A stretch of DNA of 64,000 bases from Candidatus Omnitrophota bacterium (GCA_016930235.1 JAFGHI010000025.1:16437-80436); one strand, 5' to 3'; positions 2,765 through 52,079 are shown, counted from the first letter of the stretch. Numbers and translations: made by a program. The notes: generated by a model from the letters alone, not told the origin.

Positions 2765-4294
2765 TCACACATGGTCCGATTGTAATTCATTTGAGTATTC
2801 ATATGTCTGTTGAATGTCGTCTTTCTTTTTTGTTTTTGGTTGATGCCTAAACAACATATCAATAATTTCTTGCACCAACGTACGATCGGCCCAATATAAA
2901 GTCAGAAGATAAACACTACCACCAACAGCAGATAAAATGGCTAATTTCAACGCGTAGAGTTCCCGCATAACGTTCATCTGCCCCATACCATACTTCGATA
3001 AAACAATTATGCTCGACATGGCTACGCATGCAATGAAAGTCGATTTAATTCGAATAACGAGTTCTCTCAGTCGGTAATCAACGATTCGTTTTACAAGATA
3101 GAGATTGATGGGTACAAAAATTAACGAAGTCAGAATCATAGCATAAACTGCACCCTCGGCACCCCACACATAGGCGAACCCGATTAAAACAGGCAATCGA
3201 AAAATAACACGGGCCAGATTTAATCGAAATTGATAGTCCGGCTTACCGCATCCCATAAATATTGGCCATGAACTTGCACCTAATGGACTAATGATCTGCA
3301 CAATTCCGAATAATTGCATGAGCGGGATCATCGGCACCCATTTCGCTCCATAAATAGTCAAAACAATCTCCTCTGCCGCCAGAATAATGAAAAAACTGAA
3401 CGGAAATGAAAGGCACGATATGAAACTGACGATTTTTAAAAAGGTCTTTCGAACCGTTGCAAGATTGTTCTGAATCGCAGCATAGGCGGGGAACATCACA
3501 CGGGAAATAAGCTGGGTGAAATGACTGTTAATAAAATTACCGATGTTGGACGCTAACGCAAAATACCCCAGAATAGTCGTCCCCAGCATTTTTCCGACTA
3601 CAATATTGTTCATGTTATCCATCACATAACTCAGAATCGAGAGCCCGACTATAAATTTGCCGAAACTAAATAATTCTTTAGCCGCTTTCTTCTCATATTG
3701 AAATTTGACACGATACCCTGAAGAGAAGAACAGCAAGATGACCATGACCACGCCCTTAATGATATAAGCCCACACCAGACTCCAAATTGTCGGCGATATT
3801 AATGCAAAGGAAATTGCACAAATGGAATTGACAAAAGAACTGGCAAGGCGAATAAACGAAATCGTCCGAAACTTCATCCTTCTTGTTAAAAGCGCCGAAG
3901 GTACTTTCCCAAAACTATTGATGACGAAAATGATACCCAACGCCTGGACCACAACGGTGACTTCAGGATTTCCGAAAAATTTACCGGCTAATGGTGCCAA
4001 CAGCATACACAAACTAAAAACAACAACGCCAAAAAATAAGATAACGGAGAATGCCGTGTGGTTGGCAATGTCACGACTGTCTTTGCGTTGAATGAGCCCT
4101 GAATCGATACCAAAACTCTGGAAGATCCCTAACCCATCAATCAAGATAAACGCCATAGCAAACAACCCAAAAACAGAAGGCTCAAGAATCCTCGCTAGAA
4201 TGGCAAAAGTCACCACCGACGACATCTTTTGAGTTATTTTGACAATCATCATCCACTTCACGCCCGATACAGCTTTTTGCTTAAGACCTTTCAT
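2765..4294 (-). CDS. Wzx-type oligosaccharide flippase (MOP/polysaccharide biosynthesis protein family)
   Basis: 509 aa, about 12-14 predicted hydrophobic helices, Wzx-like length and composition. It sits among GT genes. Confidence 0.75.
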   Translation of the reverse strand: MKGLKQKAVSGVKWMMIVKITQKMSSVVTFAILARILEPSVFGLFAMAFILIDGLGIFQSFGIDSGLIQRKDSRDIANHTAFSVILFFGVVVFSLCMLLAPLAGKFFGNPEVTVVVQALGIIFVINSFGKVPSALLTRRMKFRTISFIRLASSFVNSICAISFALISPTIWSLVWAYIIKGVVMVILLFFSSGYRVKFQYEKKAAKELFSFGKFIVGLSILSYVMDNMNNIVVGKMLGTTILGYFALASNIGNFINSHFTQLISRVMFPAYAAIQNNLATVRKTFLKIVSFISCLSFPFSFFIILAAEEIVLTIYGAKWVPMIPLMQLFGIVQIISPLGASSWPIFMGCGKPDYQFRLNLARVIFRLPVLIGFAYVWGAEGAVYAMILTSLIFVPINLYLVKRIVDYRLRELVIRIKSTFIACVAMSSIIVLSKYGMGQMNVMRELYALKLAILSAVGGSVYLLTLYWADRTLVQEIIDMLFRHQPKTKKKDDIQQTYEYSNELQSDHV

Positions 4295-4446: not shown

Positions 4447-5478
4447 TCACCCCACGGTTACGACCTCGCACTGCTTTTTGTCTTCCTCTACAATCGCTGC
4501 TTTCGCCAGATCTCTTGAACCTTGATTGAATCCAACAAGATAAATGACAGCGCCCGTAACAGCCATTAACACCATCAAAGAATAATTGACGATCGAAAAC
4601 AAAAAAGCATTCTCCGGGAGTACCCCTACCAGCCCAAGGAAGTAAACAAATCCATTTTCCCGTATACCGATCCCATTGACTGTGATCGGAAGCATCGTAA
4701 GCGTTACGACCAGCATGGTCATTACCGAGACTGTCGCGAAACTCAAATCGAACCCGAAAGCCTTGGCAACTAAAAAATACCGAAGAAAAACAAACAACTG
4801 CATGACTAATGAAATCAGAAAAGCTTCCAAAATGACCCCATGCTGATTTCGATACGCCCGCAAAGTTTCAACGGCCTTTCCAATAACGGTAATCCTCTTC
4901 CCGAGTTTCTCAATCCACGCGCTTGAACTCATCAACCCATACCCTAAGATCATCGCTCCGATTAATAGAACGCTGAAAAACACCACATTCCCCCTCGATA
5001 TGTTAAAGATCTTCATCAGCGTGCCTGACAGCGATAAACAAATAGCCGCCAAAACCAGTATGGCCACTGTTCCAATGAGCCGGCCAATTAAGACGATGGT
5101 CATCGAACGCGTCTTGCCTACACCGTATTTGGACATCGAGTACGCCCGCACAAAATCACCGCCGATAATCGTCGGTAGAAAGTGACCGAAAAAATAACCG
5201 ATCATGTAACATTTCAGTGTATAGCGATATGGAACCTGAGCTCCGTTCGCGTGAAGAAGCCGCTTCCATCTCAGTGAATGCAAGGCAAACAGTCCCCACA
5301 TGGCAACATAGCCCGCAAAACACCATTCCCAGCGAATACTTTTAAAAACCTCTGTAAGATCCGCCCAATTCAGGTTGCGGATTAAAAACCCAATTAAAAT
5401 CAGGCTTATGCCGAGCTTTAATACCCATGAACGATGCCGAACTTTGTCTATCCACGCTTTTACCCCAGTCAAAATCAT
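4447..5478 (-). CDS. Flippase-like / lysylphosphatidylglycerol-synthase TM-region family (UPF0104) membrane protein
   Basis: 343 aa polytopic membrane protein. The N-terminus has RHRSWVLKLGISLILIGFLI...DL..V; this family is commonly paired with GT2 genes in EPS loci. Confidence 0.6.
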   Translation of the reverse strand: MILTGVKAWIDKVRHRSWVLKLGISLILIGFLIRNLNWADLTEVFKSIRWEWCFAGYVAMWGLFALHSLRWKRLLHANGAQVPYRYTLKCYMIGYFFGHFLPTIIGGDFVRAYSMSKYGVGKTRSMTIVLIGRLIGTVAILVLAAICLSLSGTLMKIFNISRGNVVFFSVLLIGAMILGYGLMSSSAWIEKLGKRITVIGKAVETLRAYRNQHGVILEAFLISLVMQLFVFLRYFLVAKAFGFDLSFATVSVMTMLVVTLTMLPITVNGIGIRENGFVYFLGLVGVLPENAFLFSIVNYSLMVLMAVTGAVIYLVGFNQGSRDLAKAAIVEEDKKQCEVVTVG

Positions 5479-5514: not shown

Positions 5515-6327
5515 TCATGTCACCATAAATCCAAAGATAAAAATCGATGCCTGAACTGCGCGCACAAACGCTACGGACTCATGAATCTTAATCCTTTCCC
5601 GCATTTCAACCAAAGCGCTCACAACGGACCATATCGAAAAAACAATTGCGAGTTCAAAAAAGACCGGCTTTAAAAATGCCGGACTCATGAGAAACAAAAG
5701 GAAATCCTGAAACCCTTCAATATGGTGTATCGCCACCCCCAGACGCCCGACCTTTAAAAAAGGCAGTGAATATCCGTAAAGCTTCGAAGAAAAAGGCCAA
5801 AACAAAGGCACACCATAAGCGCTGAACATATCGAGAATCACGTGGGTGGAATAAGCCAAGAAGCTGAGAGCGAAGAGACGTAGCTCCTGTGACTTTTCTC
5901 GTATAAATTTTGAAATTCGAATCTCGAAACTCGAAACAAATCCGAATAAATCAAATCCTAATATCGAAACGGTTCTTTTGGAAGCAAGCCTATTCGCCAA
6001 ACTCCGGCATTTTTTATTATTGCCTTCTTCGGATTTCTGATTTGCTTCGAAATTCGGATTTCGGATTTCGGATTTAAGGCTCTTGACAAAGTGATATCCC
6101 CCTACAATCATGAAGGCTACGATGAAAGCAGCCGCCAGACTATGGGAAGGTCCTCGGTGAAACCGTGCTGCCTGTTGGATGAAAAGCCCGGGGAGAAAAT
6201 CAAAATCGGCTAGAGCGGCGAGCAGGACAAAAAAGAGAAGGTAGGGCCATCTCGTTTTCCGGTCCTTTTGTTTTGCAAAACAATAAACCGAATAACCCGC
6301 AAACGAATGTATCACCGGTAATGGCAT
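5515..6327 (-). CDS. DUF457/YdjM-type membrane-bound metal-dependent hydrolase carrying an in-frame ~190-nt repeat-element insertion
   Basis: HRGPSHSL and YSTHVILDMFSAYGVPLFWP match the YdjM motifs HRGFTHSL and YLSHILADM..GVPLLWP. The protein is 270 aa versus about 190 aa expected for the family. The extra ~63 residues (EIRNPNFEANQ...FIREKSQE) are encoded exactly by the family-1 repeat at 5883-6075. Confidence 0.7.
   Translation of the reverse strand: MPLPVIHSFAGYSVYCFAKQKDRKTRWPYLLFFVLLAALADFDFLPGLFIQQAARFHRGPSHSLAAAFIVAFMIVGGYHFVKSLKSEIRNPNFEANQKSEEGNNKKCRSLANRLASKRTVSILGFDLFGFVSSFEIRISKFIREKSQELRLFALSFLAYSTHVILDMFSAYGVPLFWPFSSKLYGYSLPFLKVGRLGVAIHHIEGFQDFLLFLMSPAFLKPVFFELAIVFSIWSVVSALVEMRERIKIHESVAFVRAVQASIFIFGFMVT
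5883..6075. mobile_element. Family-1 inverted-repeat miniature element, copy A, inserted in-frame inside the DUF457 gene
   Basis: Left arm gaaattcgaatctcgaaactcgaaacaaatccgaata... and right arm ...cttcgaaattcggatttcggatttcggattt are inverted copies of the cgaaat/tcggattt heptamer arrays seen at 6985, 8212, 10845 and 41617. Confidence 0.6.
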
Positions 6328-6333
6328 AGCGCA

Positions 6334-6792
6334 TCATACCCCCCGAAAAGGTTCGTGAGACGATGAACTCGTCCCGCTCAGAACCGGTGATTCGGAGAAA
6401 CGGCGAGACGGCGATTTAATGACCCACTTATCCGCACTTTCTATCATCATGACAATTTGACCCATGATACGATCCGTTTCCTCTTCAAGATGTTCTGCCT
6501 CTTCCTTTGTAATATAATTACATCTCCTTGCGATTTCAGACCATACTTGTGTTTCGCAAGCTTCTGTCTCAGCATCGCTGAGCTTACTTATGAATGCCGC
6601 TTTATACCGGCGCTTCCGCCAAGCTTCTGCCAAGTTTGAACAAACCGACCTCGAAGACCTTTTCATTTGATCCGTCAAAGAATATTTTTCCTCACTCGGA
6701 AATCTCTTCGTTATTCGAAATATTTCCATTGCCATATTCATTGCACGATCATAAACATTAAGCTCTTTATAACTCGATATTATCTTCCCCAT
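6334..6792 (-). CDS. Four-helix-bundle protein (TIGR02436, '23S rRNA intervening-sequence protein' family), copy 1
   Basis: LTDQMKRSSRSVCSNLAEAW matches the family core QLxRAAxSIxxNIAEG, and ETEACETQVWSEIARRCNYI matches the C-terminal helix. About 30 aa C-terminal extension. Its stop is 6 nt from the DUF457 start. Confidence 0.8.
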   Translation of the reverse strand: MGKIISSYKELNVYDRAMNMAMEIFRITKRFPSEEKYSLTDQMKRSSRSVCSNLAEAWRKRRYKAAFISKLSDAETEACETQVWSEIARRCNYITKEEAEHLEEETDRIMGQIVMMIESADKWVIKSPSRRFSESPVLSGTSSSSHEPFRGV

Positions 6793-6799
6793 CTCTTTT

Positions 6800-6960
6800 C
6801 CCGTTGCGCCGCTTCTCCGTCTCTCCGGCTCACCCGCTCTCGTCTCTCGCCCCTTGCCCCTGCTCTTTCACCGGTTCTTCGTTTCGCCTACCCCCGTCTC
6901 GTGTCTCTCGCCCCTTGCACCTGCTCTTGCCCCTGCCCCCTTAGGGAATCATTTCTTGAG
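6800..6960. repeat. CT-rich imperfect tandem direct repeat, two copies about 58 bp apart, core ctctcgccccttgc(c/a)cctgctctt
   Basis: Read directly: ccgctctcgtctctcgccccttgcccctgctctt at about 6832-6866 and ccgtctcgtgtctctcgccccttgcacctgctctt at about 6890-6925. Confidence 0.6.
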
Positions 6961-6984
6961 AACTAAGAACACGACCTCTTATAA

Positions 6985-7170
6985 ATCCGAATCCCGAAAT
7001 CCTAAGCACGAAACAAATTCGAATATCGAAATTCAAACAAAACCAAACTCTTCATTATCTTAAACACACATTGCATTTCTTTGCTTTTTTCTTTGCCGCA
7101 ATGTTTTATATTTATCTTTCTTATTTCTGATTTCGATATTGCTTCGGATTTCGATATTCGTATTTCGAAT
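6985..7170. mobile_element. Family-1 miniature element, copy B (arms plus about 90-bp spacer; internal-deletion derivative)
   Basis: Left arm atccgaatcccgaaatcctaagcacgaaacaaattcgaatatcgaaattcaaacaaaacc and right arm ttatttctgatttcgatattgcttcggatttcgatattcgtatttcgaattt. The spacer reverse complement reads ttgcggcaaagaaaaaagcaaag..., a degraded 4HB start (MAA.KK..). The right end abuts the BY-kinase stop codon at 7171. Confidence 0.6.
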
Positions 7171-8157
7171 TTACAGCCTTTGTTCCGTGTTCTTAGTCCT
7201 TTCTTTCTTCAGCACTGCCTTTTCCCACCAGCCCTGGAACCGCTCTTCCATATCCTTCAAATTAAAGCCGGCCCGCTTAAAATGATAATGAGCACGGTTG
7301 CGGCCCTCATCACTATATTCATCGTAATAGTTGTAATAGCGGTAGTCGGGCGATGAAAACTCCACATTGGTAAGAACATAACCAAGCATCTTGGCCCCGG
7401 CCTGTTTGAATAAAACCTGGGCATGAGAAATGACACTCTTGGGCGTCCTTCCGACCTGGATCACGAATAAAACACCATCCACCTCTTTGCCCAAGATTCC
7501 GGCATCCGCCACGGACATGATCGGAGGCGAATCAATGATGATGTAATCAAAGTGATGACGAAGTTCCCGTATGAAATACTGCAGCTTTGAAGAGCTCACA
7601 AGTTCGGCGGATTTCCGGGTCGCTTCCCCTCTCGGGATAATCACAAGATTCTTTAAGGAATTCTTGCACATAACCTGCTTTGGATTCAAATCCTCACGAA
7701 GCAGCTCAGTCAGTCCCTTCTTCTTGTCACCAAAACCCATATAATCGGAAATGTTCCCGCGTCTCAAGTCGGCATCAATCAAGGCCACTCGCGCTTCGCC
7801 GTTCTCGGCCAGAGAAAGAGCCAAGTTTGTCGCGGTCACCGTCTTCCCCTCTGAGTGAATGGAACTGGAAACGAGAATCACTTGTGCCTGCTGTTTCGTC
7901 AGCTGCGCCTTCAAGGAGGTGCGAAACATCCTGTATTGCTCGGCCAGCATGGAGTCCGGAAACCTTAGCATGATCAACCGACTGTCCGGGTTTGTATTTT
8001 TAATTGTCGTAATCCCACGCTCAAAAGATGAAACATTGTCAACGGCTTCATCTTCATGTGCCGGAAGTCGCAACCCCGGACTGCCATCAGAACCAGCGGC
8101 TTTCGCCTGGTCCCTTTCCTCTTGTAGTTTTTCAAGTGCTTTCGTGTATTTACTCAT
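7171..8157 (-). CDS. BY-family protein tyrosine kinase (CpsD/EpsG-like cytoplasmic ATPase, separate from the co-polymerase)
   Basis: Walker A HSEGKT, Walker A' ALIDADLRRG, Walker B DYIIIDSPP, and a C-terminal tyrosine cluster YRYYNYYDEY. 328 aa. Confidence 0.85.
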   Translation of the reverse strand: MSKYTKALEKLQEERDQAKAAGSDGSPGLRLPAHEDEAVDNVSSFERGITTIKNTNPDSRLIMLRFPDSMLAEQYRMFRTSLKAQLTKQQAQVILVSSSIHSEGKTVTATNLALSLAENGEARVALIDADLRRGNISDYMGFGDKKKGLTELLREDLNPKQVMCKNSLKNLVIIPRGEATRKSAELVSSSKLQYFIRELRHHFDYIIIDSPPIMSVADAGILGKEVDGVLFVIQVGRTPKSVISHAQVLFKQAGAKMLGYVLTNVEFSSPDYRYYNYYDEYSDEGRNRAHYHFKRAGFNLKDMEERFQGWWEKAVLKKERTKNTEQRL

Positions 8158-8211
8158 TTTGGTATGTCTCCTTTATTCCTTTATGATAACTATTTGCTAT
8201 AACTAAACTCG

Positions 8212-8748
8212 TTAAATACGAATCTCGAAACTCGAAATCCGAAACAAATTCGAATATCGAAATACAAATAAAACAAATAACACTAAAACAATACTCGCTT
8301 GTTCCTTCAGATTGACTTTCGTACAATAGAACCGAAAATGTTCATCAATTCCGTCGATTCTTGAATCAATGACTGCACTTCTTTTTCTAAACCGTTCGTA
8401 CAAACGCCCTCCAAAAGTCGAAGCCAATAACGGCTTTCTTTTGCCTCTTTCCTGCAGATCGTGATACGCATGCCAAAATCTTTTTTCCCTAACGACTCGT
8501 TGGCTTCGATATAGTTTGCGCCAACAGAGCCGGAGGCCCTCAATAACTGTCGCATATCATCCTGCACAATCCAGGACTTGTTCGCCTTCGATAATAGATC
8601 GCGCACTTGTACGGCAAATTTATAAGTCCGTTCCTCTAAATCGTATTTCTTTTCTTTTTTATCCGCTGCCATAACGATTTCGTTTTCTCTTTCTTATTTC
8701 GAATTTCGAAATTCCTTCGGATTTCGTGATTCGGATTTCGTATTTTCT
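8212..8748. mobile_element. Family-1 composite element, copy C: inverted heptamer-repeat arms flanking an intact four-helix-bundle gene
   Basis: Left arm 8212-8285 (cgaatctcgaaactcgaaatccgaaacaaattcgaatatcgaaatacaaataaaac) and right arm 8690-8748 (ttatttcgaatttcgaaattccttcggatttcgtgattcggatttcg) are inverted relative to each other and enclose ORF 8307..8672. Confidence 0.6.
8307..8672 (-). CDS. Four-helix-bundle protein (TIGR02436 family), copy 2, carried inside the family-1 element
   Basis: 121 aa. DDMRQLLRASGSVGANYIEANE and KDFGMRITICRKEAKESRYWLRLL match the family's two conserved helices. Confidence 0.85.
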   Translation of the reverse strand: MAADKKEKKYDLEERTYKFAVQVRDLLSKANKSWIVQDDMRQLLRASGSVGANYIEANESLGKKDFGMRITICRKEAKESRYWLRLLEGVCTNGLEKEVQSLIQESTELMNIFGSIVRKSI

Positions 8749-8767
8749 GCTGTTGCGCCTACTTCGG

Positions 8768-9586
8768 TTATCCGTGTCGAATCGTCGTCATGGCATCGCG
8801 TACGATCGCCTCATCGATTTTCTTGGTTTCGGCGATATAGCCCGCCAGGAGCGAATGATCACACAGATTATTAATCACTCGCGGGATCCCTTTGGTGAAT
8901 TCATAAATCAATCGATAAGATCCTTCCGGAAAAAGCCCCGAATAATCTTCGCCGTTGAGCTTGGCATGGTTTAAGCGATGGACGATGTAATTCTTCGTGT
9001 CTTCCGGACTTAACGCATTCAGATGATACTGAATCGATATCCTTTGTTTTAACTGGGCCAAACTCGACAACTCAAGCTTTCTTCGCAGTTCCGGCTGGCC
9101 CAACAAGATAATTTGGATCAATTTCTCCTTTTCGGTCTCTAAGTTTGAGAGCATTCTTACCTCTTCGAGGCAGGCCGGGCTCAGGTTCTGTGCTTCGTCG
9201 ATCATGAGAACCACATTCTGGTCGGAAGCCATCTGCTCTAAAAGATAATTATTGAGCTGAATCAGTAACTTATCTTTTGAACCATTCCGGTAATGGATGC
9301 CCAAATCTTCCATGATGAGCGTCAGAATACCTTTCGGACTTATCGTCGTATTGGTCACCAGCGCTGTTTTTACATCGCGGTCCAACTTCCGTAAAAGCGT
9401 CCGTGCAATGGTTGTTTTACCGGCACCCACTTCGCCGGTAATCACCACAAAACCCTTTCGCTGCCGAATCGCAAAGAGAAGCGCATCCAGGGCCGTTTTA
9501 TGTCCCAAGGATTCAAAGAAAAAACCTGAATCGGGCGTCTGGTTGAATGGATTTTCCTTAAATCCAAAAAATTTGTTATACACCAC
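8768..9586 (-). CDS. ExeA-like AAA ATPase (putative secretion ATPase of the EPS/PEP-CTERM locus type)
   Basis: 272 aa. P-loop VITGEVGAGKTTIARTLL, and DEAQNL as the Walker B region. Its position between the co-polymerase and the BY-kinase matches the known PEP-CTERM-locus arrangement. Confidence 0.75.
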   Translation of the reverse strand: MVYNKFFGFKENPFNQTPDSGFFFESLGHKTALDALLFAIRQRKGFVVITGEVGAGKTTIARTLLRKLDRDVKTALVTNTTISPKGILTLIMEDLGIHYRNGSKDKLLIQLNNYLLEQMASDQNVVLMIDEAQNLSPACLEEVRMLSNLETEKEKLIQIILLGQPELRRKLELSSLAQLKQRISIQYHLNALSPEDTKNYIVHRLNHAKLNGEDYSGLFPEGSYRLIYEFTKGIPRVINNLCDHSLLAGYIAETKKIDEAIVRDAMTTIRHG

Positions 9587-10790
9587 TTCCGGCCTTTAAC
9601 CTTTCTCCGAGAATCAGTTCCTCGGGACGAATCGTTGCGATCGCTCCGAAAATCGGAAGATCGAGTAGATTTCTCGCCTCTTCCAGATTCCGGATCGAGT
9701 TATCGCTCAGTTCGATCAGGTAAATGATGATGAGCCCCAAGGCCACTCCGACAATCAAGCCGCCGATAAAAAAGAGTGTCTTATTGGGTTTGACGGGCTC
9801 GAGCGGCAGCCTCGCCGGTTCCAAAATCCTGAATTTTGTCCCGCTTTCCGAATCTTCCAGCGTCTGGGACATTTTTGCCGTCTCCAGTTTCTGTAAAAGC
9901 CTTTGATAGATCTCGGCATTGACCGCATAATTTCTCTGCAGTTTCGCCAATTGCTGTTCCTGATAGGGCACGCTCGAGACCATTTTAGCGTATTGTTCGG
10001 GCTTGATTTCCAAGCCTTGGACTTCAGCCTGCGCCAAGAAAGCATCGCGCTGCTGTTCCAACTGGCCGATCATATTACGGACCTGAATCACACGCGGATG
10101 GGCCTCGGTGTTATCCACCAGCAGCTGATTCAATTCCATTTTTAAAGCCACAAGCTGTTCGTTCAGTCTCGTCGCAATCGGCAGCGAGGACATATACACC
10201 TCACGAAACTCCCGGAGGGCATTTTCGGATTCCTCAAGCTTCACCCGGTAAGTTTCGAGTTGATCGTCAATGAAACGAATCGCGCTGTTTGCTTCAAGAT
10301 CCGCAGAGGTAATATTCCCCCCAATAATGATGTCGGCCAGCGTCTTCACAATCAGTTGGGCCTTTTTCGGGTCCGGGCCCTCGTAGGAGATCGTAATCAT
10401 GTCCGCCCCGCGGAGTTTGATATCAATCTTCTTTCTAAGATTCCGAATAAGCCGATCCCTCTGGATGGGCGTAATTGCCTTCTTATCCAACACTAATTTC
10501 TCAATCAGCAAAGTCAGCCGCTCCCAAGATAAAAGTTCCTCCCGAAGCGTACTCATCCTTGCCCTCATCGAGGGTGAAATCGCAAGCCCGCGAATCAAAG
10601 GGTTCAAAATAGTCTCGCTTTCAACCAGGAGGACGGTCTCAGCCCTATAAATTTTGGGCAGCGTAAAAGCCATCAAAAGCGCAATGACGACCGATACAAT
10701 CAGGGCACCAAAAAACCACCCTTTATGCCGGACCCCCATGTAGTAATATTCCCTCAATCTTAATGTTTGTGTCATGTTGTTTAGATTCAT
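9576..10790 (-). CDS. Polysaccharide co-polymerase (Wzz/chain-length determinant, PCP family)
   Basis: 404 aa. N-terminal TM followed by the Wzz motif (PKIYRAETVLLVE), a long coiled-coil periplasmic region, and a C-terminal TM LFFIGGLIVGVALGLIIIYLIE. Confidence 0.8.
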   Translation of the reverse strand: MNLNNMTQTLRLREYYYMGVRHKGWFFGALIVSVVIALLMAFTLPKIYRAETVLLVESETILNPLIRGLAISPSMRARMSTLREELLSWERLTLLIEKLVLDKKAITPIQRDRLIRNLRKKIDIKLRGADMITISYEGPDPKKAQLIVKTLADIIIGGNITSADLEANSAIRFIDDQLETYRVKLEESENALREFREVYMSSLPIATRLNEQLVALKMELNQLLVDNTEAHPRVIQVRNMIGQLEQQRDAFLAQAEVQGLEIKPEQYAKMVSSVPYQEQQLAKLQRNYAVNAEIYQRLLQKLETAKMSQTLEDSESGTKFRILEPARLPLEPVKPNKTLFFIGGLIVGVALGLIIIYLIELSDNSIRNLEEARNLLDLPIFGAIATIRPEELILGERLKAGSGV

Positions 10791-10844
10791 GTGTTATCTA
10801 TCTCCTTAATTATGATTTCATATATTCATAAAAACTAAGCTTAA

Positions 10845-11040
10845 TAAATTCGAAATGCGAAACACGAAATCCGAAACAAATTCAAATATCGAAATTCAAA
10901 TAAAACCGAACGCTTCATTTCCTTAAATACAAACCGTATTACCTTCTTTTTTATCCACCGCCATATCGTTTTATACTTTTTCTTTTTTATTTCTAATTTC
11001 GAATTTGTTTCGTGCTTCGAAATTCGAATTTCGGATTTTC
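10845..11040. mobile_element. Family-1 miniature element, copy D (deletion derivative), directly adjacent to 4HB copy 3
   Basis: Arms cgaaatgcgaaacacgaaatccgaaacaaattcaaatatcgaaattcaaataaaacc and ttatttctaatttcgaatttgtttcgtgcttcgaaattcgaatttcggatttt. The spacer reverse complement reads ATG GCG GTG GAT AAA AAA GAA GGT... (MAVDKKEG), almost identical to the MAADKKEKK start of 4HB copy 2, then stops. Confidence 0.6.
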
Positions 11041-11064
11041 ATGAACGCGGTACGCGGTCCATGC

Positions 11065-11502
11065 TCAGTGTGTCAACGCACCCTTCCAATCCGAGTGGAG
11101 CTGGGAATAAATACAATAGTTTTCATGTAAACGATGAATGCGCTTGGACAATTCCTGATAGCCTCGAGTAAGCTGATCATATTCGGTTTTTTCGATATAC
11201 CCGCAGTTCAAGGCCAGACCTAAGCACACCAGAACATGATTGGCCGCACCGCACGCGTCTCTTAAATGTCTGCGAAGGACGGTTTCACGACGTCTTTTCG
11301 CCCAGCCTTCGGCGATATGGGCAGAAACACGCCTCGAACTATTCAAAGTTTGACTAAAAAGCGTGTGCCTTTCATAGTCTGGAAATTTCCGGACACATTT
11401 AAATATCTGGCCGGCCAAAGTCATACTGATTTTGTAACTTTCCAAATCCTCGAACCCGCCGATTTCCATCTCCGATGTCAATTCACTTTCACTCGTCATC
11501 AT
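11065..11502 (-). CDS. Four-helix-bundle protein (TIGR02436 family), copy 3
   Basis: 145 aa. FSQTLNSSRRVSAHIAEGW and LRDACGAANHVLVCLGLALNCGYI match the family helices. It is more divergent than copies 1 and 2. Confidence 0.75.
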   Translation of the reverse strand: MMTSESELTSEMEIGGFEDLESYKISMTLAGQIFKCVRKFPDYERHTLFSQTLNSSRRVSAHIAEGWAKRRRETVLRRHLRDACGAANHVLVCLGLALNCGYIEKTEYDQLTRGYQELSKRIHRLHENYCIYSQLHSDWKGALTH

Positions 11503-11719
11503 TTCGATTACCCCTCAATCATGTTCCAAAGATTTAAGACAACCCGAAAGACCAGCTTGCCGCCCATTACAATAAGTGGCCAGATGATGAGATTACTATA
11601 GGCTCTCAAGATTGCTTCCCGGCCTCTCTTTAAACTATTCTTCTTTTTCATCGTCTTCCTTTTTCTTCTTGATTCGTTATTAGGCGCTGAAATTCTCTTC
11701 TGCTCCGGAAACGCATCAA

Positions 11720-12757
11720 TTAATCTCCCTTTAAATACCCGTCCTGGCCTCCATAAGCCAATTCGTAAACAGCCGAGGCCTGGAACAGCGGCCCGACCAA
11801 TCTTGAAAAGTTGTTCACAAACTTATCGAAATAACGCTGGTGAACAACAATAGTATCGCCGGGCATCAGCATGAAATCGTTCGCCGAATCCCCTTTGTAG
11901 AGCAATTCTTTTAAATTCACTTTCTTTTTCTCGGCTTCCCCGCTCTCGGTATACTGAGAAGGCCTTATCACATAAACCCGCTTCAAAGCCCCGTCATAAG
12001 TCGGCAGACCTGCCGCCACAACGGCCTCTTTCACCGTGATATTGTCACCCTTCATGGCAAATTTTCCGGGACGATTGACATATCCGAAGATATAGACGGC
12101 TTTACTCCGGTATTCGGAGATCATCACGGCCACTTCGGGATACCGGACAAACTTCTTGAGAGCGCTGACGACATCTGCCTTGAGTTCTTCCTTGGTCTTC
12201 CCTTCGGCCTTAATGTCACCCACAAAGTTGTATTGAATATTTCCCTCCGGATCGATCACAAATCGGCCAGAAAAGTCAGGCTGGTTGCGGACAATGACCG
12301 TCACGACATCATCAATCCCAAGGGTGTAATCAGATCCCTCCCCGATGACTTCGATATAGGGCGAATATTTTGAATAGGGCGAAACTTCAGAGGCCATAAA
12401 AGGATCCTGGTTGGCTGTCTGCTGACCCGGCGGCGGCGGTGTATATTGCGGCTGCCCCATGAATTGATATTGGGCCGACAAATTCCCCTGAGTGTAGGGA
12501 GAATTCATAAAGCTCGCGTATGGGGAAAATTGCGTTGAATAATTGGTACTGTAATTAACCGGCATCACATTCGAATACCCCGGTTGAGTATTCTGGGTCT
12601 GCATCTGTGACGGATCGTTTTCTCCCATATAGAGAAGATCCTCCGCAAAAACAGGGGCCGACAGGATGAATGCGATAAAAACTCCCAAAATGGCGATTTT
12701 AAATATTTTGCTTTGTGATTTCATTTCTTCTTTCCTAACCTTTCGATAATTTTTCAA
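11720..12757 (-). CDS. Polysaccharide export protein (Wza-like; Poly_export plus SLBB domains) with a ~90-aa Q/Y/P/S/N-rich low-complexity insert
   Basis: 345 aa. Signal peptide, then a low-complexity stretch PSQMQTQNTQPGYSNVMPVNYSTNYSTQFSPYASFMNSPYTQGN...YTPPPPGQQ, then a Wza-like core (GDI..EGKTKEELKADVVSALKKF...VAVMISEYRSKAVYIFGYVNRPG...PGDTIVV). Confidence 0.8.
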   Translation of the reverse strand: MKNYRKVRKEEMKSQSKIFKIAILGVFIAFILSAPVFAEDLLYMGENDPSQMQTQNTQPGYSNVMPVNYSTNYSTQFSPYASFMNSPYTQGNLSAQYQFMGQPQYTPPPPGQQTANQDPFMASEVSPYSKYSPYIEVIGEGSDYTLGIDDVVTVIVRNQPDFSGRFVIDPEGNIQYNFVGDIKAEGKTKEELKADVVSALKKFVRYPEVAVMISEYRSKAVYIFGYVNRPGKFAMKGDNITVKEAVVAAGLPTYDGALKRVYVIRPSQYTESGEAEKKKVNLKELLYKGDSANDFMLMPGDTIVVHQRYFDKFVNNFSRLVGPLFQASAVYELAYGGQDGYLKGD

Positions 12758-12960
12758 GACTCATAAACCGTGCTCACGATCTGCTGAAGGGCCTCGAGAT
12801 CTTCTTCCAGATAGATCCGCCAGCCTTTCCAGTCGCGCTTCGGTTTGCGTATTCTTCCGGCCTTTTCCCACCGAATGATGGTTTTGGCCGTGACGCCGAC
12901 TTTCTCGGCAACCTCAGTTATTGTCATTCTCTCTTCAATCACGCTCGTTTCCTCCATCAA
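12754..12960 (-). CDS. Small excisionase/MerR-type HTH DNA-binding protein (putative locus regulator)
   Basis: 68 aa. MTITEVAEKVGVTAKTIIRWEKAGRI is a helix-turn-helix of the excisionase-family DNA-binding domain type. It is the first gene of the export operon. Confidence 0.6.
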   Translation of the reverse strand: MMEETSVIEERMTITEVAEKVGVTAKTIIRWEKAGRIRKPKRDWKGWRIYLEEDLEALQQIVSTVYES

Positions 12961-13296: not shown

Positions 13297-14847
13297 ATGA
13301 ATCATAGCGTTCCATTTTTTCACGCCACATTTCAAAATGGGAAAACCATTACTCGCGGTATTTCCCATTGTAATTTAGGTCATAAAATTCCCATCGGTAC
13401 TGACCGCATAGATGGGATATACGTCGACTGGAATTGGGATGGTCAAAGACTAGAAGTCAAAAATGACCTATATGGATTTTATCCGCTTTATGTTTACCAT
13501 GATCAAAACGAGATATGCATCTCGCCATCGATTGTCAAATTGCTCGCCGAAGGCGCAAAACGGGATCTTAATTGGCCTGCCCTGGGCGTTTTTATGCGGG
13601 CGGGATTTTTCATTAAAGACGATACCCCCTTCCGCTACATCCGCGCATTGCCACCAAATGCCAAATTTCTTTGGGGAAATGGCAAACTCAAAATTTCTGG
13701 ATCTTACACTCTAAGGGATGAAAATAAGCTGACTCTTTCTCAAGCCTTAGACGACTACATTGATCTTTTCCGGCAAGCCATAAAGCGAAGATTACCCCGA
13801 AACCGCGAGTGTTTTCTACCATTAAGCGGAGGCCGGGATTCGCGGCATATACTTTTTGAACTTCTAAAAAACGGCATTCGACCTCAATCATGCATTACTG
13901 TCGAACATTACACGCAGGGCTCTAATGAAGATGCGCGCATCGCCCAACTGCTAGCGTCAACATTCAGCCTAAAACACATTTTGCTCCGGCAAACCGTTCC
14001 TTTTTTTAATTCAGAGTACAGGAAAAATTTTCTTACGAATATGTGCACGGATGAACACACGCATTTCTTAATCATGGCGGACATACTCGCCAACTCTAAC
14101 CACGCTATCTACGATGGCATCGGAGGCGATATCTTGACCTCAAGTCGGACGCTTTCAAACACGATTCTACAACTATTCCGTTCAAGAAATTTCAGGGAAT
14201 TATCTAATCTCATTTTTCGATGCGACGAAAACCTTTTAAAATGGCTGCTGAGAAGAAATATCTACTCAAAGATGAATCGTGAATCAGCTATCGAGTACCT
14301 CACGACAGAGCTTGAGCAGCATACGGATGTTCCAAATCCCCCCGGATCGTTTTATTTCTGGAATCGCACACGAAGAGAAATTTCACTTTCCAGCTATGCC
14401 CTCTGCGGTTTTAACTCGCTCATTCATATGCCTTATATTGATTATGATCTTTTCAATTTCTTGGCCGGGATACCTACTTCTTTGCTTCTCAACCAAGATT
14501 TTCATACACGCGCCATTAGCCGCGCTTTTCCTGAATTCGATAACATTCCCTACCAGGATAAAACCGTTAAAGATGTTGACCGCGAAAGTCTCCAGGATCG
14601 GTTTTTCTATGACGTCCTGGCCTATTTGATGCGATATCCATTTTATAAGACTGAGATGCTCCAACTTGAGTCCTTAATCCCTCGATGCCTTCACGCGTTG
14701 ATCAGCCCTTCCAAACGACGCGACAGCATATGGTTTACAAAACCATTACTCTATCTCCTGCAGCTTGAAGAGTTGGCGACGAAACCGGCAGTGATTTCCA
14801 ACGCCTTACGAATCGTTGAGCGCCGAGATACCGTCAAGACAACTTGA
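13297..14847 (+). CDS. Asparagine-synthetase-family (PP-loop ATP pyrophosphatase) protein lacking the N-terminal Cys glutaminase nucleophile; putative sugar amidotransferase
   Basis: 516 aa. PP-loop FLPLSGGRDSRHI. The start is MNHS, not the Met-Cys of class-II GATase. One of only two plus-strand genes. Confidence 0.7.
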   Translation: MNHSVPFFHATFQNGKTITRGISHCNLGHKIPIGTDRIDGIYVDWNWDGQRLEVKNDLYGFYPLYVYHDQNEICISPSIVKLLAEGAKRDLNWPALGVFMRAGFFIKDDTPFRYIRALPPNAKFLWGNGKLKISGSYTLRDENKLTLSQALDDYIDLFRQAIKRRLPRNRECFLPLSGGRDSRHILFELLKNGIRPQSCITVEHYTQGSNEDARIAQLLASTFSLKHILLRQTVPFFNSEYRKNFLTNMCTDEHTHFLIMADILANSNHAIYDGIGGDILTSSRTLSNTILQLFRSRNFRELSNLIFRCDENLLKWLLRRNIYSKMNRESAIEYLTTELEQHTDVPNPPGSFYFWNRTRREISLSSYALCGFNSLIHMPYIDYDLFNFLAGIPTSLLLNQDFHTRAISRAFPEFDNIPYQDKTVKDVDRESLQDRFFYDVLAYLMRYPFYKTEMLQLESLIPRCLHALISPSKRRDSIWFTKPLLYLLQLEELATKPAVISNALRIVERRDTVKTT

Positions 14848-27394: not shown

Positions 27395-28822
27395 TTAATA
27401 CGCGTTTTTAAAACCTCTTGAGGTTAACGTCATCAGTAAAATTTCAATATCAAACAAAAGAGACCAGTTTTCCATATAAAAAAGATCATACTTAATGCGT
27501 TCTTGAATGGAGGTATTTCCCCGGTAACCGTTCACCTGGGCCCAGCCCGTAATGCCCGCTTTAACCTTATGCCGTGACATATATCGGGGTATAGCTTCTC
27601 GAAATTGACTGATAAAATGCGGGCGTTCGGGACGAGGTCCGATTAAACTCATTTCGCCTTTGAGCACATTCAAAAACTGAGGCAATTCGTCAAGGTTCCA
27701 GCGCCGCAAGAAATTGCCGATCCGGGTGCGGCGAGCATCTTTGACATTGGCCCAAACCGGACCCGAATCCTTTTCTGCATCTACCCGCATCGTCCTGAAC
27801 TTGAGCAAATTAAAAACTTTTTCGTCGCGCCCCATTCTCTCCTGACTGTAGAAAATAGGACCTCCGTCATCAAGCTTAATGAGCACAATCACAAATAACC
27901 ACAAAGGGAAACTCAAAAGAAGCAAGATGGATACCGCCAGAAGATCAAAACACCGCTTGGCAAACCGATTCCAAATATCGTCCAACGGTAAAGGCCTGAA
28001 TCCGAGTAACGGGACCGTGCTAATATAATCCACGTCAACGTTGCGGGATAATAACCCGTAAAAATCGGCTCCGATTTTAAATTCGATGAATTTATCTTCG
28101 CAGGCAGCCACCAAATCGGTGATCCTTTCCCGCGTAAAACTCGTATCCAAGAGAATGACCTCGTTGGGCTTCAGATGATCAATAAAACTTTCGCATTGAT
28201 CCGAGATGCCAAGAATCGGAACCCCTTCGACATGTTTGCCGACAAGACCGGGATCCTTTGCGAGGACTCCCACGATTTCACGCCCATAATGAGGGTTGTT
28301 TTTCGCCCATTGAATGATTTGGCGCGTATTGCGATTACTCCCAAGAAGAAGGATCCGTTTAATGTCCCGCTTCTTGATTTTTCTCCTGTATTCCCATTGG
28401 ATCATGAGATAACGCGAAAAAGTCAAAATAATCCCCGAAATGACCCACAAAGTCACCAGGTAAATTCTTGAATAGGAAAAACCACGGTAAAAGAATGTCA
28501 CGGCCATTAGAATGACAACCGAAAAGGTCACCGCTTTAGAAACCAAAAAGATCTCTTCGATCCTTCGAATATGCCGGTACGTTGAATACAATCCATATTC
28601 TCTGAAGAAGTAAAGATAAACCGGAAGAATCACCATAAGCGCCTGAACATAAGGCAGGAAACTGGGGATATTTTCGCTCGAAATCCAACCCGTCACAAAC
28701 CGCACGTAATAAGCAAAAAAGACACTCGCAATCACCGCACCGCAGTCGGCAAGGACCGTCAGGAAAATAAAATGGAGTCTCTTTTCAGTTGTCGGCATCG
28801 GCCACCGGATTATCTTCCTCAA
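27395..28822 (-). CDS. Initiating polyprenyl-phosphate sugar-phosphate transferase (WbaP/EpsB-type 'bacterial sugar transferase')
   Basis: 475 aa. 4-5 N-terminal TMs, a central linker, and a C-terminal catalytic domain KRCFDLL...PIFYSQERMGRDEKVFNLLKFRTM...DELPQFLNVLKGEMSLIGPRP. Confidence 0.9.
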   Translation of the reverse strand: MRKIIRWPMPTTEKRLHFIFLTVLADCGAVIASVFFAYYVRFVTGWISSENIPSFLPYVQALMVILPVYLYFFREYGLYSTYRHIRRIEEIFLVSKAVTFSVVILMAVTFFYRGFSYSRIYLVTLWVISGIILTFSRYLMIQWEYRRKIKKRDIKRILLLGSNRNTRQIIQWAKNNPHYGREIVGVLAKDPGLVGKHVEGVPILGISDQCESFIDHLKPNEVILLDTSFTRERITDLVAACEDKFIEFKIGADFYGLLSRNVDVDYISTVPLLGFRPLPLDDIWNRFAKRCFDLLAVSILLLLSFPLWLFVIVLIKLDDGGPIFYSQERMGRDEKVFNLLKFRTMRVDAEKDSGPVWANVKDARRTRIGNFLRRWNLDELPQFLNVLKGEMSLIGPRPERPHFISQFREAIPRYMSRHKVKAGITGWAQVNGYRGNTSIQERIKYDLFYMENWSLLFDIEILLMTLTSRGFKNAY

Positions 28823-32725: not shown

Positions 32726-33142
32726 TTAATACTGAACCTCATACTTTTTAGGATTAAACTCACATTGTTCTCGATGAATCCAATAACTTTCCTTATTCTC
32801 CCGAAAGGATAGGTCTAAGAATCGTTTTCCCAATATTCGACTCAATAGCCCGATCGGCGTTACGACAAGATAAAACAAGATTGTTAAAATAATCCGCGTC
32901 ATGACCCACCCCATCATGAGCGCCAGCGTCATCCAGATTTTGTGGATAGGCCATAGTAAGACGGGTGCTATGAAACCGGCAAGAAAGAAGAAAGCCGCAG
33001 CATAAATCAGCACCACGGGCCGGACGCCATGGAGCCACCAGGCAAGCCCAAAAATCACGACGGAAGCAATGGTCATAACCTTCGCAAACGATCGCAATTC
33101 CTTTTTCCCGCTTTTGATGGTTTTCATTTCATGCAAAAACAC
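32726..33142 (-). CDS. Small 3-4 TM membrane protein immediately downstream of the carbamoyltransferase (possibly SxtJ-like)
   Basis: 138 aa, hydrophobic helices. The SxtJ-like assignment is a guess from context only. Confidence 0.35.
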   Translation of the reverse strand: MFLHEMKTIKSGKKELRSFAKVMTIASVVIFGLAWWLHGVRPVVLIYAAAFFFLAGFIAPVLLWPIHKIWMTLALMMGWVMTRIILTILFYLVVTPIGLLSRILGKRFLDLSFRENKESYWIHREQCEFNPKKYEVQY

Positions 33143-35196: not shown

Positions 35197-36441
35197 TTAT
35201 GGTTCGGAGGCAGAGGCCATGTTCTGATACGCCCATTGAATCCCCATAAGAAACCAAAATTGCATGACAGGTTGCGGGTTATGAAGTACGGTATCGATCA
35301 AAGCCATGATTAAGAAGTTGAATAAACCGACAAGTAATCCGAACCGTAATGTTGTCACTCCGAACCACTTAGCATGTCCGCGGCTTAGCACTCCCTTGAG
35401 CGCTTTTGAAAAATAAAGAATCAAAAACAACAAAAATAGCAGCAAGCTCGGAATTCCCGTTTCGGCTGCCATTTGCAGATAACCGTTATGAGCGTAATAT
35501 CCAATTACCCGCTTATTACGCGTCTTGTCATATTTCCCGTGGGCCATCGCATAAGTATTAATCCCTGTCCCGCCAAGAGGCGCAGCCTGAATCACATGGA
35601 TAGCCCGGTCCCACAAATAATATCTCTCAACAAGCGATTGTTCTTTCCCTTCTGCGTCTAAGTGGATAATCATCCCCTTGGGTAGAACCCAGAATCCCGC
35701 CAAGGCCAGAGCGCCTATAACCGTTAGCCATTTCCACTGTTTTGCCAAGATAAGAGCTGCCAAAAGGCCTATGATGAACGCTAGCAAACATCCTCGAGAA
35801 CGTGTCATAAAAAGTAAGACAAGTCCTAATATAACTAATATCCCGAAAAAAGCTGTGGCCGCTTTTGATTTTTTCTTTTTGATGTTATCCACAGCCAAGG
35901 ATGCCATCACGGGAATCGTCATGATCAAATAAGCGCCCAATAATCCGTAGCTCTTGAAAGAAGCCGAAATGCGCAATCCCGCGCTCGATTCTTCGGGCGC
36001 ATAGCCTCGCAAAAAATCGTGCCCGAATAAATATTGGACAAATCCATCGATAACCATGACGGCAAATAAGGCCATAAAGACTTTTTCGAATTGGTTAAGC
36101 GCCTTTTGAGCACAGAAGACATCGGCGACCATCCAAAAAAGCATGACCTGTTGTAAAACCTTAAAGATACCCCGGTAACTCAGTCCCGGATAACTTGACC
36201 CAAAATAGGAAAGTATACAAATCAGGACGAATCCGATCAGGGGCCAAAAAATCCCCCACTTTGAGATCCGAGGCAAGACCGATCGATGCAAAAATTTGTT
36301 CAGGAGCCAGCATCCGAAAGCGATGGAGAAAGAAATTTCAATAAGCGCAGGCGAAAAAGCGGAGGATGCCCAGAAAACAAGCAACGTGTAAAAAGTCACT
36401 TTCTCCAAAACAACTTCGCCCTTGACCACTCGATCGCTCAC
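35197..36441 (-). CDS. O-antigen ligase/polymerase (Wzy-like) family membrane protein
   Basis: About 10-12 TMs with a large periplasmic loop. The ORF-track start overlaps the upstream GT2 by 118 nt, so the start was moved to a GTG just past that gene's stop. The exact start is uncertain. Confidence 0.6.
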   Translation of the reverse strand: MSDRVVKGEVVLEKVTFYTLLVFWASSAFSPALIEISFSIAFGCWLLNKFLHRSVLPRISKWGIFWPLIGFVLICILSYFGSSYPGLSYRGIFKVLQQVMLFWMVADVFCAQKALNQFEKVFMALFAVMVIDGFVQYLFGHDFLRGYAPEESSAGLRISASFKSYGLLGAYLIMTIPVMASLAVDNIKKKKSKAATAFFGILVILGLVLLFMTRSRGCLLAFIIGLLAALILAKQWKWLTVIGALALAGFWVLPKGMIIHLDAEGKEQSLVERYYLWDRAIHVIQAAPLGGTGINTYAMAHGKYDKTRNKRVIGYYAHNGYLQMAAETGIPSLLLFLLFLILYFSKALKGVLSRGHAKWFGVTTLRFGLLVGLFNFLIMALIDTVLHNPQPVMQFWFLMGIQWAYQNMASASEP

Positions 36442-36446
36442 GGTTT

Positions 36447-37196
36447 TCAAGAGCCCCCCCGACCGAAAGCTTTCAAGAAGCGCTGATATTTTAAAAAAAC
36501 ATAATAAGCCGACAGTCGAGCATACTGAAAACCTGCCCAACCGTCCCGCCAACCCGACTTCCAAATATAAAGAAAAAGAAATTTCCCCGAAGCTCTCAGG
36601 TACGGGTCCATTCTTCGTACTGACTGTCCCCGGTTTTGGATTACCTTCAATTCCAAAGGAATATATCGATCAAGCTTTTCTTGATAATGTTTCCGGTCTT
36701 GCGTGCTGAAATGAACAATGGTTTGATGCAAATATTCAACATCCAGCTTTGTCACCAGCTCTTCATGGACGGGTTGTGCATAATGAGCCTTGCCTCGGGG
36801 AAATAACCGGATCGGATAATCATCCTGTGTCCCGCTGAAACCGAGCCTCTTGCCGAAAAAAAAAGTCTGCCGCTTAATCCCATAAACACATTCTTCTTTG
36901 TCCTGCTGGACAATCTCTGATATTTCGGATTTGAGTCTCGGCGTGACCCTCTCATCGGCATCCAGAATCAATATCCAGTCTCCGGAGGCCTTTCGGATGG
37001 CTTCATTCTTCTGAGTTGAGAAATCCTTGAAGGGTATCCGAAAAACCTTGTCCGTATACTTTCTTGCAAGGGCCATGGTTTCATCACGGCTTCCCCCATC
37101 CACGACCACAATCTCATCGGCCCAACGCACCGACTCCAGACAGGATTCAATGTTTTCTTCTTCATTTAACGTGATCACAACCGCTGACAAGGTCAT
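36447..37196 (-). CDS. Glycosyltransferase family 2
   Basis: LSAVVITLNEEENIESCLESV...IVVVDGGSRDET...LILDADE. Confidence 0.85.
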   Translation of the reverse strand: MTLSAVVITLNEEENIESCLESVRWADEIVVVDGGSRDETMALARKYTDKVFRIPFKDFSTQKNEAIRKASGDWILILDADERVTPRLKSEISEIVQQDKEECVYGIKRQTFFFGKRLGFSGTQDDYPIRLFPRGKAHYAQPVHEELVTKLDVEYLHQTIVHFSTQDRKHYQEKLDRYIPLELKVIQNRGQSVRRMDPYLRASGKFLFLYIWKSGWRDGWAGFQYARLSAYYVFLKYQRFLKAFGRGGS

Positions 37197-41616: not shown

Positions 41617-41782
41617 AAAATCCGAATCTCGAATTTCGAAGCACAAAACAAATACGAATATCGAAATTCAAATAAGGCAAACAAAAGATCTGTGTCCTAT
41701 GCCCTTCGTACCTTGTTTTTTTCTTTCCTATTTCGAATTTTGATATTTCTTCGAATTTCGGGATTCGCGCTTCGGATTTCCC
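41617..41782. mobile_element. Family-1 miniature element, copy G (35 kb away from the other copies)
   Basis: Arms aaaatccgaatctcgaatttcgaagcacaaaacaaatacgaatatcgaaattcaaataagg and ctatttcgaattttgatatttcttcgaatttcgggattcgcgcttcggattt. It abuts the methyltransferase stop at 41788. Confidence 0.55.
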
Positions 41783-47586: not shown

Positions 47587-47619
47587 TCAAATTCCCCCGA
47601 TTCGATAAGATCAGAAGTT

Positions 47620-48510: not shown

Positions 48511-48546
48511 TTCGACTCCCTTTCTCTGTTAACACAATGACCGAGC

Positions 48547-49491: not shown

Positions 49492-49495
49492 TAAA

Positions 49496-50233: not shown

Positions 50234-50235
50234 AT

Positions 50236-52040: not shown

Positions 52041-52079
52041 TTTCAGCTCCCCATTGAGGCACCTTCCGAAAAAACAATA

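Follow-up and report, generated by a model that had tools for sequence, protein, structure and literature searches.

A conserved five-gene polysaccharide export cassette with a GspA-like ATPase in an Omnitrophota genome, and its relation to exosortase/PEP-CTERM loci

In a stretch of 64,000 nucleotides from a Candidatus Omnitrophota bacterium (GCA_016930235.1, JAFGHI010000025.1:16437-80436; the whole stretch is called the window hereafter), positions 7171-12960 encode on the minus strand a group of genes that an earlier note, made from the sequence alone, had described as a complete exopolysaccharide export module of the PEP-CTERM-locus type. The locus thus raises the question of whether these genes form a real unit, in which pathway such a unit would act, and whether it is part of an exosortase system. 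The region was found to be an intact five-gene polysaccharide export cassette which is conserved in Omnitrophota and represents a rather ordinary form of a system already known. It shares homology with the export block of XrtA/PEP-CTERM loci and here stands by itself; no exosortase or PEP-CTERM protein was found near it, and a link to an exosortase was not established.

The five genes and their likely pathway

Pfam and NCBIfam matches together with sequence motifs bore out each of the five genes at the limits given in the earlier note, namely a MerR-type helix-turn-helix (HTH) protein, a Wza-like exporter, a Wzz-like protein, a GspA/ExeA-like ATPase and a bacterial tyrosine kinase (BY-kinase), all on the minus strand; the five open reading frames (ORFs) are full-length and their motifs are intact. 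As relatives, 80 loci were collected by searching an ATPase profile against genomes representative of their species, the closest match being 61% identical. The order HTH, Wza, Wzz, ATPase and kinase was found in about 36 of these 80 loci, mostly in Omnitrophota and additionally in metagenome-assembled genomes (MAGs) labelled Planctomycetes, and this recurrence indicated that the five genes constitute a real conserved unit beyond chance. An Omnitrophota chromosome (CP070807.1) has the cassette as well.

The first gene of the cassette (12754-12960) encodes a MerR-type HTH protein of 68 aa (Pfam MerR 45.9 bits, MerR_1 43.7 bits), and an HTH gene was located upstream of the Wza-like gene in 31 related loci. 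In five relatives (L018:626-1669, L021:7607-8653, L026:7653-8657, L032:7652-8626 and L038:1707-2846), the HTH protein and the Wza-like exporter were fused in one ORF laid out as HTH, linker, hydrophobic segment and outer-membrane polysaccharide export (OPX) domains, an arrangement in which a periplasmic exporter anchored in the membrane would bear a DNA-binding domain on the cytoplasmic side.

The Wza-like exporter (11720-12757; Poly_export 69.2 bits, SLBB_2 40.2 bits), whose true start is probably the ATG at 12724 (MKSQSK...), possesses one N-terminal hydrophobic segment and a signal-peptide-like N-terminus devoid of a lipobox Cys. Its Pfam matches were solely Poly_export, SLBB_2 and SLBB, with neither a Wza_C nor a GfcC domain, which corresponds to the Poly_export-SLBB(n) architecture of class-3 OPX proteins (Saidi et al. 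2022). The closest solved relative was WzaB of Myxococcus xanthus (entry 9n9a), a model class-3 OPX, aligned over residues 140-310. Judged by this domain content, the exporter is a class-3-like OPX in which no membrane-spanning domain was detected. Like the M. xanthus WzaB/WzcB/WzpB system (PMC9603273, PMC12819527), it combines Poly_export with one SLBB and has no Wza_C, and the FF by which WzaB binds its porin at the C-terminus is matched in the alignment by an aromatic pair, YF. It differs in the missing lipobox Cys, in a low-complexity N-terminal region of 140 residues, and in 35 C-terminal residues beyond the WzaB alignment, a tail that the relatives have in some form. Class-3 exporters have no membrane-spanning domain and need a separate β-barrel porin (PMC9603273, PMC12819527); the window further departs from the M. 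xanthus class-3 system in that no such porin was found in it and in the separation of the co-polymerase from the kinase. Among the relatives, an AlgE-like porin was encoded upstream of the cassette in just four (L019, L027, L033 and L035).

The Wzz-like protein (9576-10790; GNVR 47.4 bits against a cut-off of 27.7, TIGR03007 270.6 bits) contains no kinase domain, and its hydrophobic segments at residues 22-40 and 336-354 flank the GNVR-bearing region, as is characteristic of a polysaccharide co-polymerase (PCP). The BY-kinase is a separate cytoplasmic protein of 328 aa (7171-8157; TIGR01007 154.8 bits, above the cut-off of 108.05) with the N-terminal motif MSKYTKALEKLQ. It carries Walker A (SIHSEGKT, residue 99), A' (ALIDADLR, residue 125) and B (IIIDSPP, residue 206) motifs as well as a C-terminal tyrosine cluster (DYRYYNYYDEY), and its homology to solved Wzc and CapB begins at about residue 56. 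In this respect the cassette resembles the split PCP-2b systems CapA/CapB and CpsC/CpsD of the Gram-positive type, in which two separate polypeptides likewise serve as chain-length protein in the membrane and as BY-kinase in the cytoplasm, and the window kinase aligns with CapB structures. It differs from them in the additional ATPase, in an N-terminal kinase extension of about 55 residues bearing a GspB-like motif, and in the organism itself, which appears to be diderm on the strength of its OPX and lipopolysaccharide-core genes.

The cassette, whose form is conserved across Omnitrophota and neighbouring phyla, is in our view likely to be the module for export and chain-length control in a polysaccharide pathway of the Wzx/Wzy type. 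The genes by which such a pathway is recognized were found in the window, namely a MOP/Wzx flippase (2765-4294, minus strand; NF007773 263 bits), a Wzy_C protein as Wzy candidate (35197-36564) and a WcaJ-type initiating phosphotransferase (27395-28822; TIGR03025/TIGR03023), of which the last two would presumably serve the cassette. Downstream of the cassette, the minus strand additionally encodes a flippase-like membrane protein (4447-5478) and two GT2 glycosyltransferases (1692-2684 and 727-1695). In the mechanism that we propose, the Wzx flippase would flip repeat units synthesized by enzymes from other parts of the window, and these units would then be polymerised; the Wzz-like protein and the separate kinase would together act as a split Wzc, in which the kinase, by phosphorylating itself, tunes both polymerisation and export; the class-3-like exporter would provide the periplasmic conduit; and the soluble GspA-like ATPase would be an accessory factor.

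Several observations weigh against this reading. The phosphotransferase and the Wzy candidate lie 15-25 kb off, behind housekeeping genes; a hidden Markov model (HMM) of the relatives' AlgE-like porin found no β-barrel porin in the window; and no phosphotyrosine phosphatase of the Wzb or PHP type was present among the window ORFs scanned. In addition, three insertions of hairpin elements and four-helix-bundle (4HB) genes stand between genes of the cassette. The basis of the ATPase docking proposed in the last section is motif co-occurrence alone, and the window kinase itself, MSKYTKALEKLQ, has Tyr at motif position 4, so that the strict pattern failed. With an exporter of class-3-like type without a membrane-spanning domain, and with neither a pore component nor a phosphatase found in the window, the description of the module as complete was overstated. 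A 138-aa ORF (32726-33142) considered as a phosphatase candidate was rejected, as it matched no solved structure.

Relation to exosortase/PEP-CTERM loci

As the earlier note had proposed, the genes were compared with the NCBIfam models of PEP-CTERM loci. These models were indeed the best matches of three genes (TIGR03027 for the exporter, TIGR03007 for the chain-length protein and TIGR03015 for the ATPase), and TIGR03018 came second for the kinase, but all four scores were below the curated cut-offs (TIGR03027, 103 against 180; TIGR03007, 270.6 against 278.85; TIGR03015, 299.7 against 324.5; TIGR03018, 147.6 against 230.65). As a control for TIGR03015, we scored ATPase paralogues from outside such cassettes, which reached 293-313 bits, and the ATPase of the XrtA locus on plasmid pDV of Nitratidesulfovibrio vulgaris (D. 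vulgaris hereafter), which reached 427.7 bits, compared with 299.7 bits for the window ATPase. Since paralogues outside polysaccharide cassettes scored alike, the match of the ATPase is not diagnostic.

Neither an exosortase (EpsH/Xrt, PF09721) nor EpsI was found in the 64-kb window, and a regular expression for PEP-CTERM tails, which recovered three D. vulgaris controls, gave no match over all of the window ORFs. Exosortase_EpsH likewise matched none of the multi-transmembrane ORFs sampled within 10 kb of related loci (32) and in the window (2), the D. vulgaris control scoring 248.5 bits. When the proteins of the D. vulgaris locus were searched against the window with phmmer, only the exporter, the chain-length protein, the kinase, the ATPase and the WcaJ-type transferase were matched; the accessory locus genes, that is, those of the TIGR03016 outer-membrane protein, the TIGR03013 transferase, the deacetylase, FemAB, EpsI and TIGR03108, were not encountered in the 64 kb. 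The assignment to a PEP-CTERM-locus type hence held as far as the homology of the parts to the XrtA/PEP-CTERM export block is concerned, and did not hold further, with scores below cut-off and with exosortase, EpsI and PEP-CTERM proteins absent from the 64 kb.

The reference locus on pDV comprises genes for a TPR protein, a TIGR03013 transferase, a TIGR03016 protein, a deacetylase, FemAB, an exosortase, EpsI and PEP-CTERM proteins. The window has in common with it a short OPX, a kinase-less chain-length determinant, a separate tyrosine autokinase and a GspA-like ATPase, the two ATPases being 43% identical and the two kinases sharing the N-terminal motif (MSRIEEALARA in pDV). In contrast, the gene order, which had been said to match that of PEP-CTERM loci, is reversed at this point, since the kinase precedes the ATPase in pDV and follows it in the window. 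The window cassette also differs from the pDV locus in being headed by a MerR-type HTH gene, in having no TPR protein, TIGR03016 protein, deacetylase, FemAB, exosortase, EpsI or PEP-CTERM protein nearby, and in that the sole phosphotransferase of the window (27395-28822) is WcaJ-type and not TIGR03013.

On the other side of the cassette, a weakly AsnB-like gene is encoded divergently (13297-14847, plus strand). It had been noted as an asparagine-synthase-like amidotransferase, of which the first part was confirmed insofar as Pfam Asn_synthase was just passed (23.2 bits against a cut-off of 21); no glutamine-amidotransferase domain was found by Pfam, and TIGR03108 gave 20.5 against 816.9, so that, by these model scores, the gene is not the PEP-CTERM amidotransferase. 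In many related loci, this divergent upstream position is occupied by rpoN (sigma-54) instead of the AsnB-like gene. Because rpoN adjoins the cassette in relatives, sigma-54 promoter motifs were searched for; 29 matched where 23 would be expected, and upstream of the HTH gene there was none. Scans for sigma-70 promoters and terminators over 5.4-13.4 kb were not above shuffled controls.

It may nevertheless be asked whether the locus is part of a genuine XrtA-like/PEP-CTERM system, the exosortase, EpsI and substrates of which are encoded elsewhere in the genome, with the cassette exporting their polysaccharide partner. We regard this as unlikely, although it has points in its favour. The locus models were best for three genes and second for the fourth, with the chain-length protein only 8 bits short of its cut-off, and the parts of a polysaccharide pathway can be scattered over a genome (PMC9603273). 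Moreover, an Omnitrophota relative with the same cassette (L019) has, at a distance of 4 kb downstream of its kinase gene, a gene for a lipoprotein of 116 aa (L019:15707-16057) that ends in a canonical VPEP-TM-RRKK tail, which indicates that exosortase systems exist in the lineage. These points are opposed by a 64-kb window without exosortase, EpsI or PEP-CTERM tail, by the lack of any Exosortase_EpsH match in the sampled ORFs of the related loci and the window, and by four specific models under cut-off, with an ATPase score equal to that of non-cassette paralogues. Furthermore, according to Haft et al. 2006 (PMC1569441), EpsH alone is specific to PEP-CTERM genomes, and genomes without PEP-CTERM contain close homologues of the other locus families. 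Nothing relevant on exosortases or PEP-CTERM in Omnitrophota was found in the literature. Best-match names from PEP-CTERM-locus models cannot be read as evidence of an exosortase system in Omnitrophota, which instead carry a self-contained five-gene export cassette annotated at present as "AAA family ATPase" and the like.

Besides the lipoprotein of the cassette-type Omnitrophota locus, the regular expression detected PEP-CTERM tails in two loci of relatives, L055:6591-9863 and L079:17070-18008, both of them Verrucomicrobia loci with ATPase paralogues. Another exosortase-free context of the ATPase family was seen on the Rhodovulum plasmid pRSMBB (L086:1494-11181), where the order is ATPase, chain-length protein and CapB-type kinase; the divergent genes there encode a sugar transferase, a TPR protein, an export protein and a rhomboid-family protease, and no exosortase is annotated in the stretch shown.

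Hairpin elements and four-helix-bundle genes

The earlier note had reported that the module is interrupted three times by repeat elements and 4HB genes, and three intergenic gaps were indeed found to hold them. Between the Wza-like and Wzz-like genes lie the hairpin inverted-repeat element E4 (10845-11039; arms 10846-10905 and 10979-11038, matched with nhmmer; fold -50.4 kcal/mol) and the gene 4HBa (11065-11502, minus strand; TIGR02436 59.1 bits, PF05635 69.1 bits), which encodes a four-helix-bundle protein of the 23S rRNA intervening-sequence protein family. E4 has no full 4HB gene and keeps about eight codons of a 4HB start, like a deletion derivative. Between the ATPase and kinase genes, the element E3 (8213-8745; arms 8214-8264 and 8695-8745, 80% complementary) encloses 4HBb (8307-8672, minus strand; TIGR02436 61 bits). 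The element E2 (6982-7173; fold -48.6 kcal/mol) directly follows the stop codon of the kinase, and 4HBc (6334-6792, minus strand; TIGR02436 105.5 bits) lies after the kinase with inverted arms of its own (6381-6411 and 6801-6831) and a different repeat sequence, which is GAGACGG-like by eye. A small ORF of 47 aa (11508-11651) was discarded as probably spurious, having no homologue in any related locus.

On the basis of these insertions, one could suppose that the cassette is decaying and that the invasion by hairpin elements and 4HB genes has uncoupled or silenced the operon, leaving the module non-functional in the source genome. Four hairpin elements and three 4HB genes indeed fall within 6 kb, one element being inside an ORF of the ydjM family, and the intergenic gaps measure 610-930 nt compared with about 10-130 nt in relatives. 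We nonetheless consider decay improbable, since the five ORFs are full-length with intact motifs, all insertions within the five-gene cassette are intergenic and co-oriented with the operon, and relatives likewise have 4HB genes at the same junctions while their cassettes are intact. The occurrence of 4HB genes at the same junctions in relatives with intact cassettes argues that the insertions are tolerated or even functional.

The ORF in question, a YdjM-family membrane protein gene (5515-6327, minus strand; Pfam YdjM 70.6 bits), contains the element E1 (5905-6076); its frame stays open, and the Pfam alignment shows an insertion at that place. The fifth hairpin element of the window is located at 41618-41779. 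All five have inverted arms of about 60 nt composed of tandem CGAAATx-type units of about 7 nt, and the short ones fold at -45 to -50 kcal/mol. Arms of the CGAAATx type were specific to the source genome, and the short Logan contigs of the same sample (SRR13394437) end in these arms.

In relatives, 4HB genes were also found between inverted arms of tandem ~7-mers (L024:1245-1698, L037:6545-6997, L011:11650-12201, L016:12405-12921 and L025:10956-11397), with a unit that differs per lineage (GTATTGA, GTGACAA, GCAGTTA, GTTAATA or CAGGCAA). Across lineages, therefore, the structure of the arms is conserved and their sequence is not. Almost nothing on such an arm-flanked 4HB structure was found in the literature. 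All three 4HB genes of the window lie within 5.2 kb (6334-11502) of the 64 kb, and every 4HB gene was co-oriented with the operon. Among the related loci, all 11 of the 4HB genes (in L011, L016, L017, L023, L024, L025, L026, L032, L037 and L056) fell in cassette-type loci (531 kb) and none in the 662 kb of other loci, with a binomial p of about 1e-4 calculated on lineages that are not independent. The locus is thus a hotspot of hairpin-flanked 4HB genes, and this may matter more than the cassette; together with the N-terminal motif described below, the hotspot is the more unusual feature of the region.

The GspA-like ATPase and a shared N-terminal motif

The ATPase of the cassette (8768-9586, minus strand) is a soluble GspA/ExeA-like AAA+ protein of 272 aa (AAA_22 105.6 bits) with a Walker A motif (GEVGAGKTT) and the sequence LMIDEAQ. 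It has no hydrophobic segment, its Pfam matches are of AAA type only, and its sequence agrees in full (100% identity) with that of a Candidatus Omnitrophica MAG protein which NCBI names just "AAA family ATPase". In a neighbour-joining tree, it was placed within a clade of 37 sequences, 36 of which stand in a polysaccharide-cassette context. The earlier note had held that the ATPase lies outside classical Wza-Wzb-Wzc pathways, and had named best matches to ExeA proteins of type II secretion among the findings that would speak against its reading. The protein is not a classical long ExeA and falls in a cassette-specific clade, so that this objection was not borne out.

The secretin-assembly architecture of GspA/ExeA, that is, an AAA+ domain, a transmembrane segment, a periplasmic peptidoglycan-binding domain and an adjacent gspB, was not found for the window ATPase. 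Like GspA-GspB (ExeA-ExeB), the window has an ATPase of the AAA_22 family that bears Walker A and DEAQ motifs, followed by a gene whose product begins with an MSxI(L)xxALxKA motif. It differs in that the ATPase has no transmembrane or peptidoglycan-binding domain, that the motif-bearing product of the next gene is the BY-kinase and not GspB, and that no secretin is nearby. The non-cassette paralogues in Omnitrophota adjoin aroB and genes for, among others, an M50 peptidase, UvrB and HD-domain proteins (by Pfam), and an assignment of these loci as pilus or type II secretion loci was dropped in view of such neighbours; the partner of the paralogous ATPase is called GspB-like by architecture and motif alone, as it had no Pfam match.

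It is highly improbable that the window ATPase is an assembly factor of type II secretion or of type IV pili (GspA/ExeA/MshM) and a mere bystander unrelated to polysaccharide export. In favour of such a role, JGI gives many homologues the name "general secretion pathway protein A", paralogues that are 47-53% identical occur in pairs with GspB-like genes, and a Legionella homologue lies within an MSHA pilus operon. Against it, the place between the Wzz-like and kinase genes is fixed in about 36 loci, the cassette ATPases form a separate clade, the window ATPase is without the transmembrane and peptidoglycan-binding parts of ExeA, and neither a GspB-like gene nor a secretin was found in the window.

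To what, then, might an export cassette owe a GspA-like ATPase? When the pattern M[GS]x[ILVMFT]xx[AK][LIM]x[KRH] was counted in the first 30 residues of each ORF, it was present in 36 of the 37 cassette kinases (consensus MGKITDALKKA) and in 35 of the 43 genes directly after non-cassette ATPase paralogues (consensus MSIINDALKKA), compared with two of 1142 other ORFs, both likewise neighbours of an ATPase. The motif also begins a PGAP-annotated GspB of Ideonella (MSYILDALRRA), an MshN-like Legionella protein, the kinase of the D. vulgaris XrtA locus and a Rhodovulum kinase of the CapB type. For its complex with ExeB, ExeA requires its cytoplasmic ATPase domain (PMC4098917), and GspB has a short cytoplasmic N-terminus, while some GspA proteins have no periplasmic part (PMC9239104). 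From the co-occurrence of the motif and this literature on ExeA/ExeB and GspB, we infer that the helix may be a docking site for GspA-family ATPases.

In the window, the ATPase would accordingly dock on the N-terminal helix of the kinase (MSKYTKALEKLQ; MGKITDALKKA in relatives), the kinase taking the place of GspB, and the docked ATPase would help to assemble or remodel the envelope-spanning exporter, in the way that GspA-GspB serves secretins. In a more general form, which we offer tentatively and hold to be somewhat doubtful, the GspA/ExeA, MshM and TIGR03015 ATPases would all work via one docking helix, M-[GS]-x-[ILV]-x-x-A-L-x-[KR]-A, on a protein encoded by a neighbouring gene. The bearer of the helix may be GspB or MshN in secretion and pilus systems, and the BY-kinase or a protein of about 190 aa with a transmembrane segment and a coiled coil in cassettes. 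If this is true, the "secretion ATPase" of PEP-CTERM-type loci would be an assembly/remodelling factor coupling the kinase/co-polymerase complex to the outer exporter. The shared motif thereby provides a concrete idea for the role of the GspA-like ATPase, which has been without a known role since the family was defined.

In eight cassettes (L009, L010, L013, L014, L016, L018, L020 and L023), a further gene of about 180-213 aa stands between the ATPase and kinase genes; the window has no such gene. The several copies inspected had an N-terminus like MSKVIxAL, one transmembrane segment and a coiled-coil-like C-terminus, and the two copies scanned had no Pfam match.

Apart from the cassette, a pseudaminic-acid-type gene set was found at 46528-53147 of the window, in which PseI (46528-47586) and PseG (50236-51285) scored above cut-offs and are accompanied by genes for a WbqC-like protein, methyltransferases and a radical SAM/SPASM protein and by a cytidylyltransferase-like gene. 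Upstream of this set, at 35-45 kb, lie more glycosyltransferases, a DUF2079 membrane protein and a second flippase, which together with it make up a large second glycan cluster.

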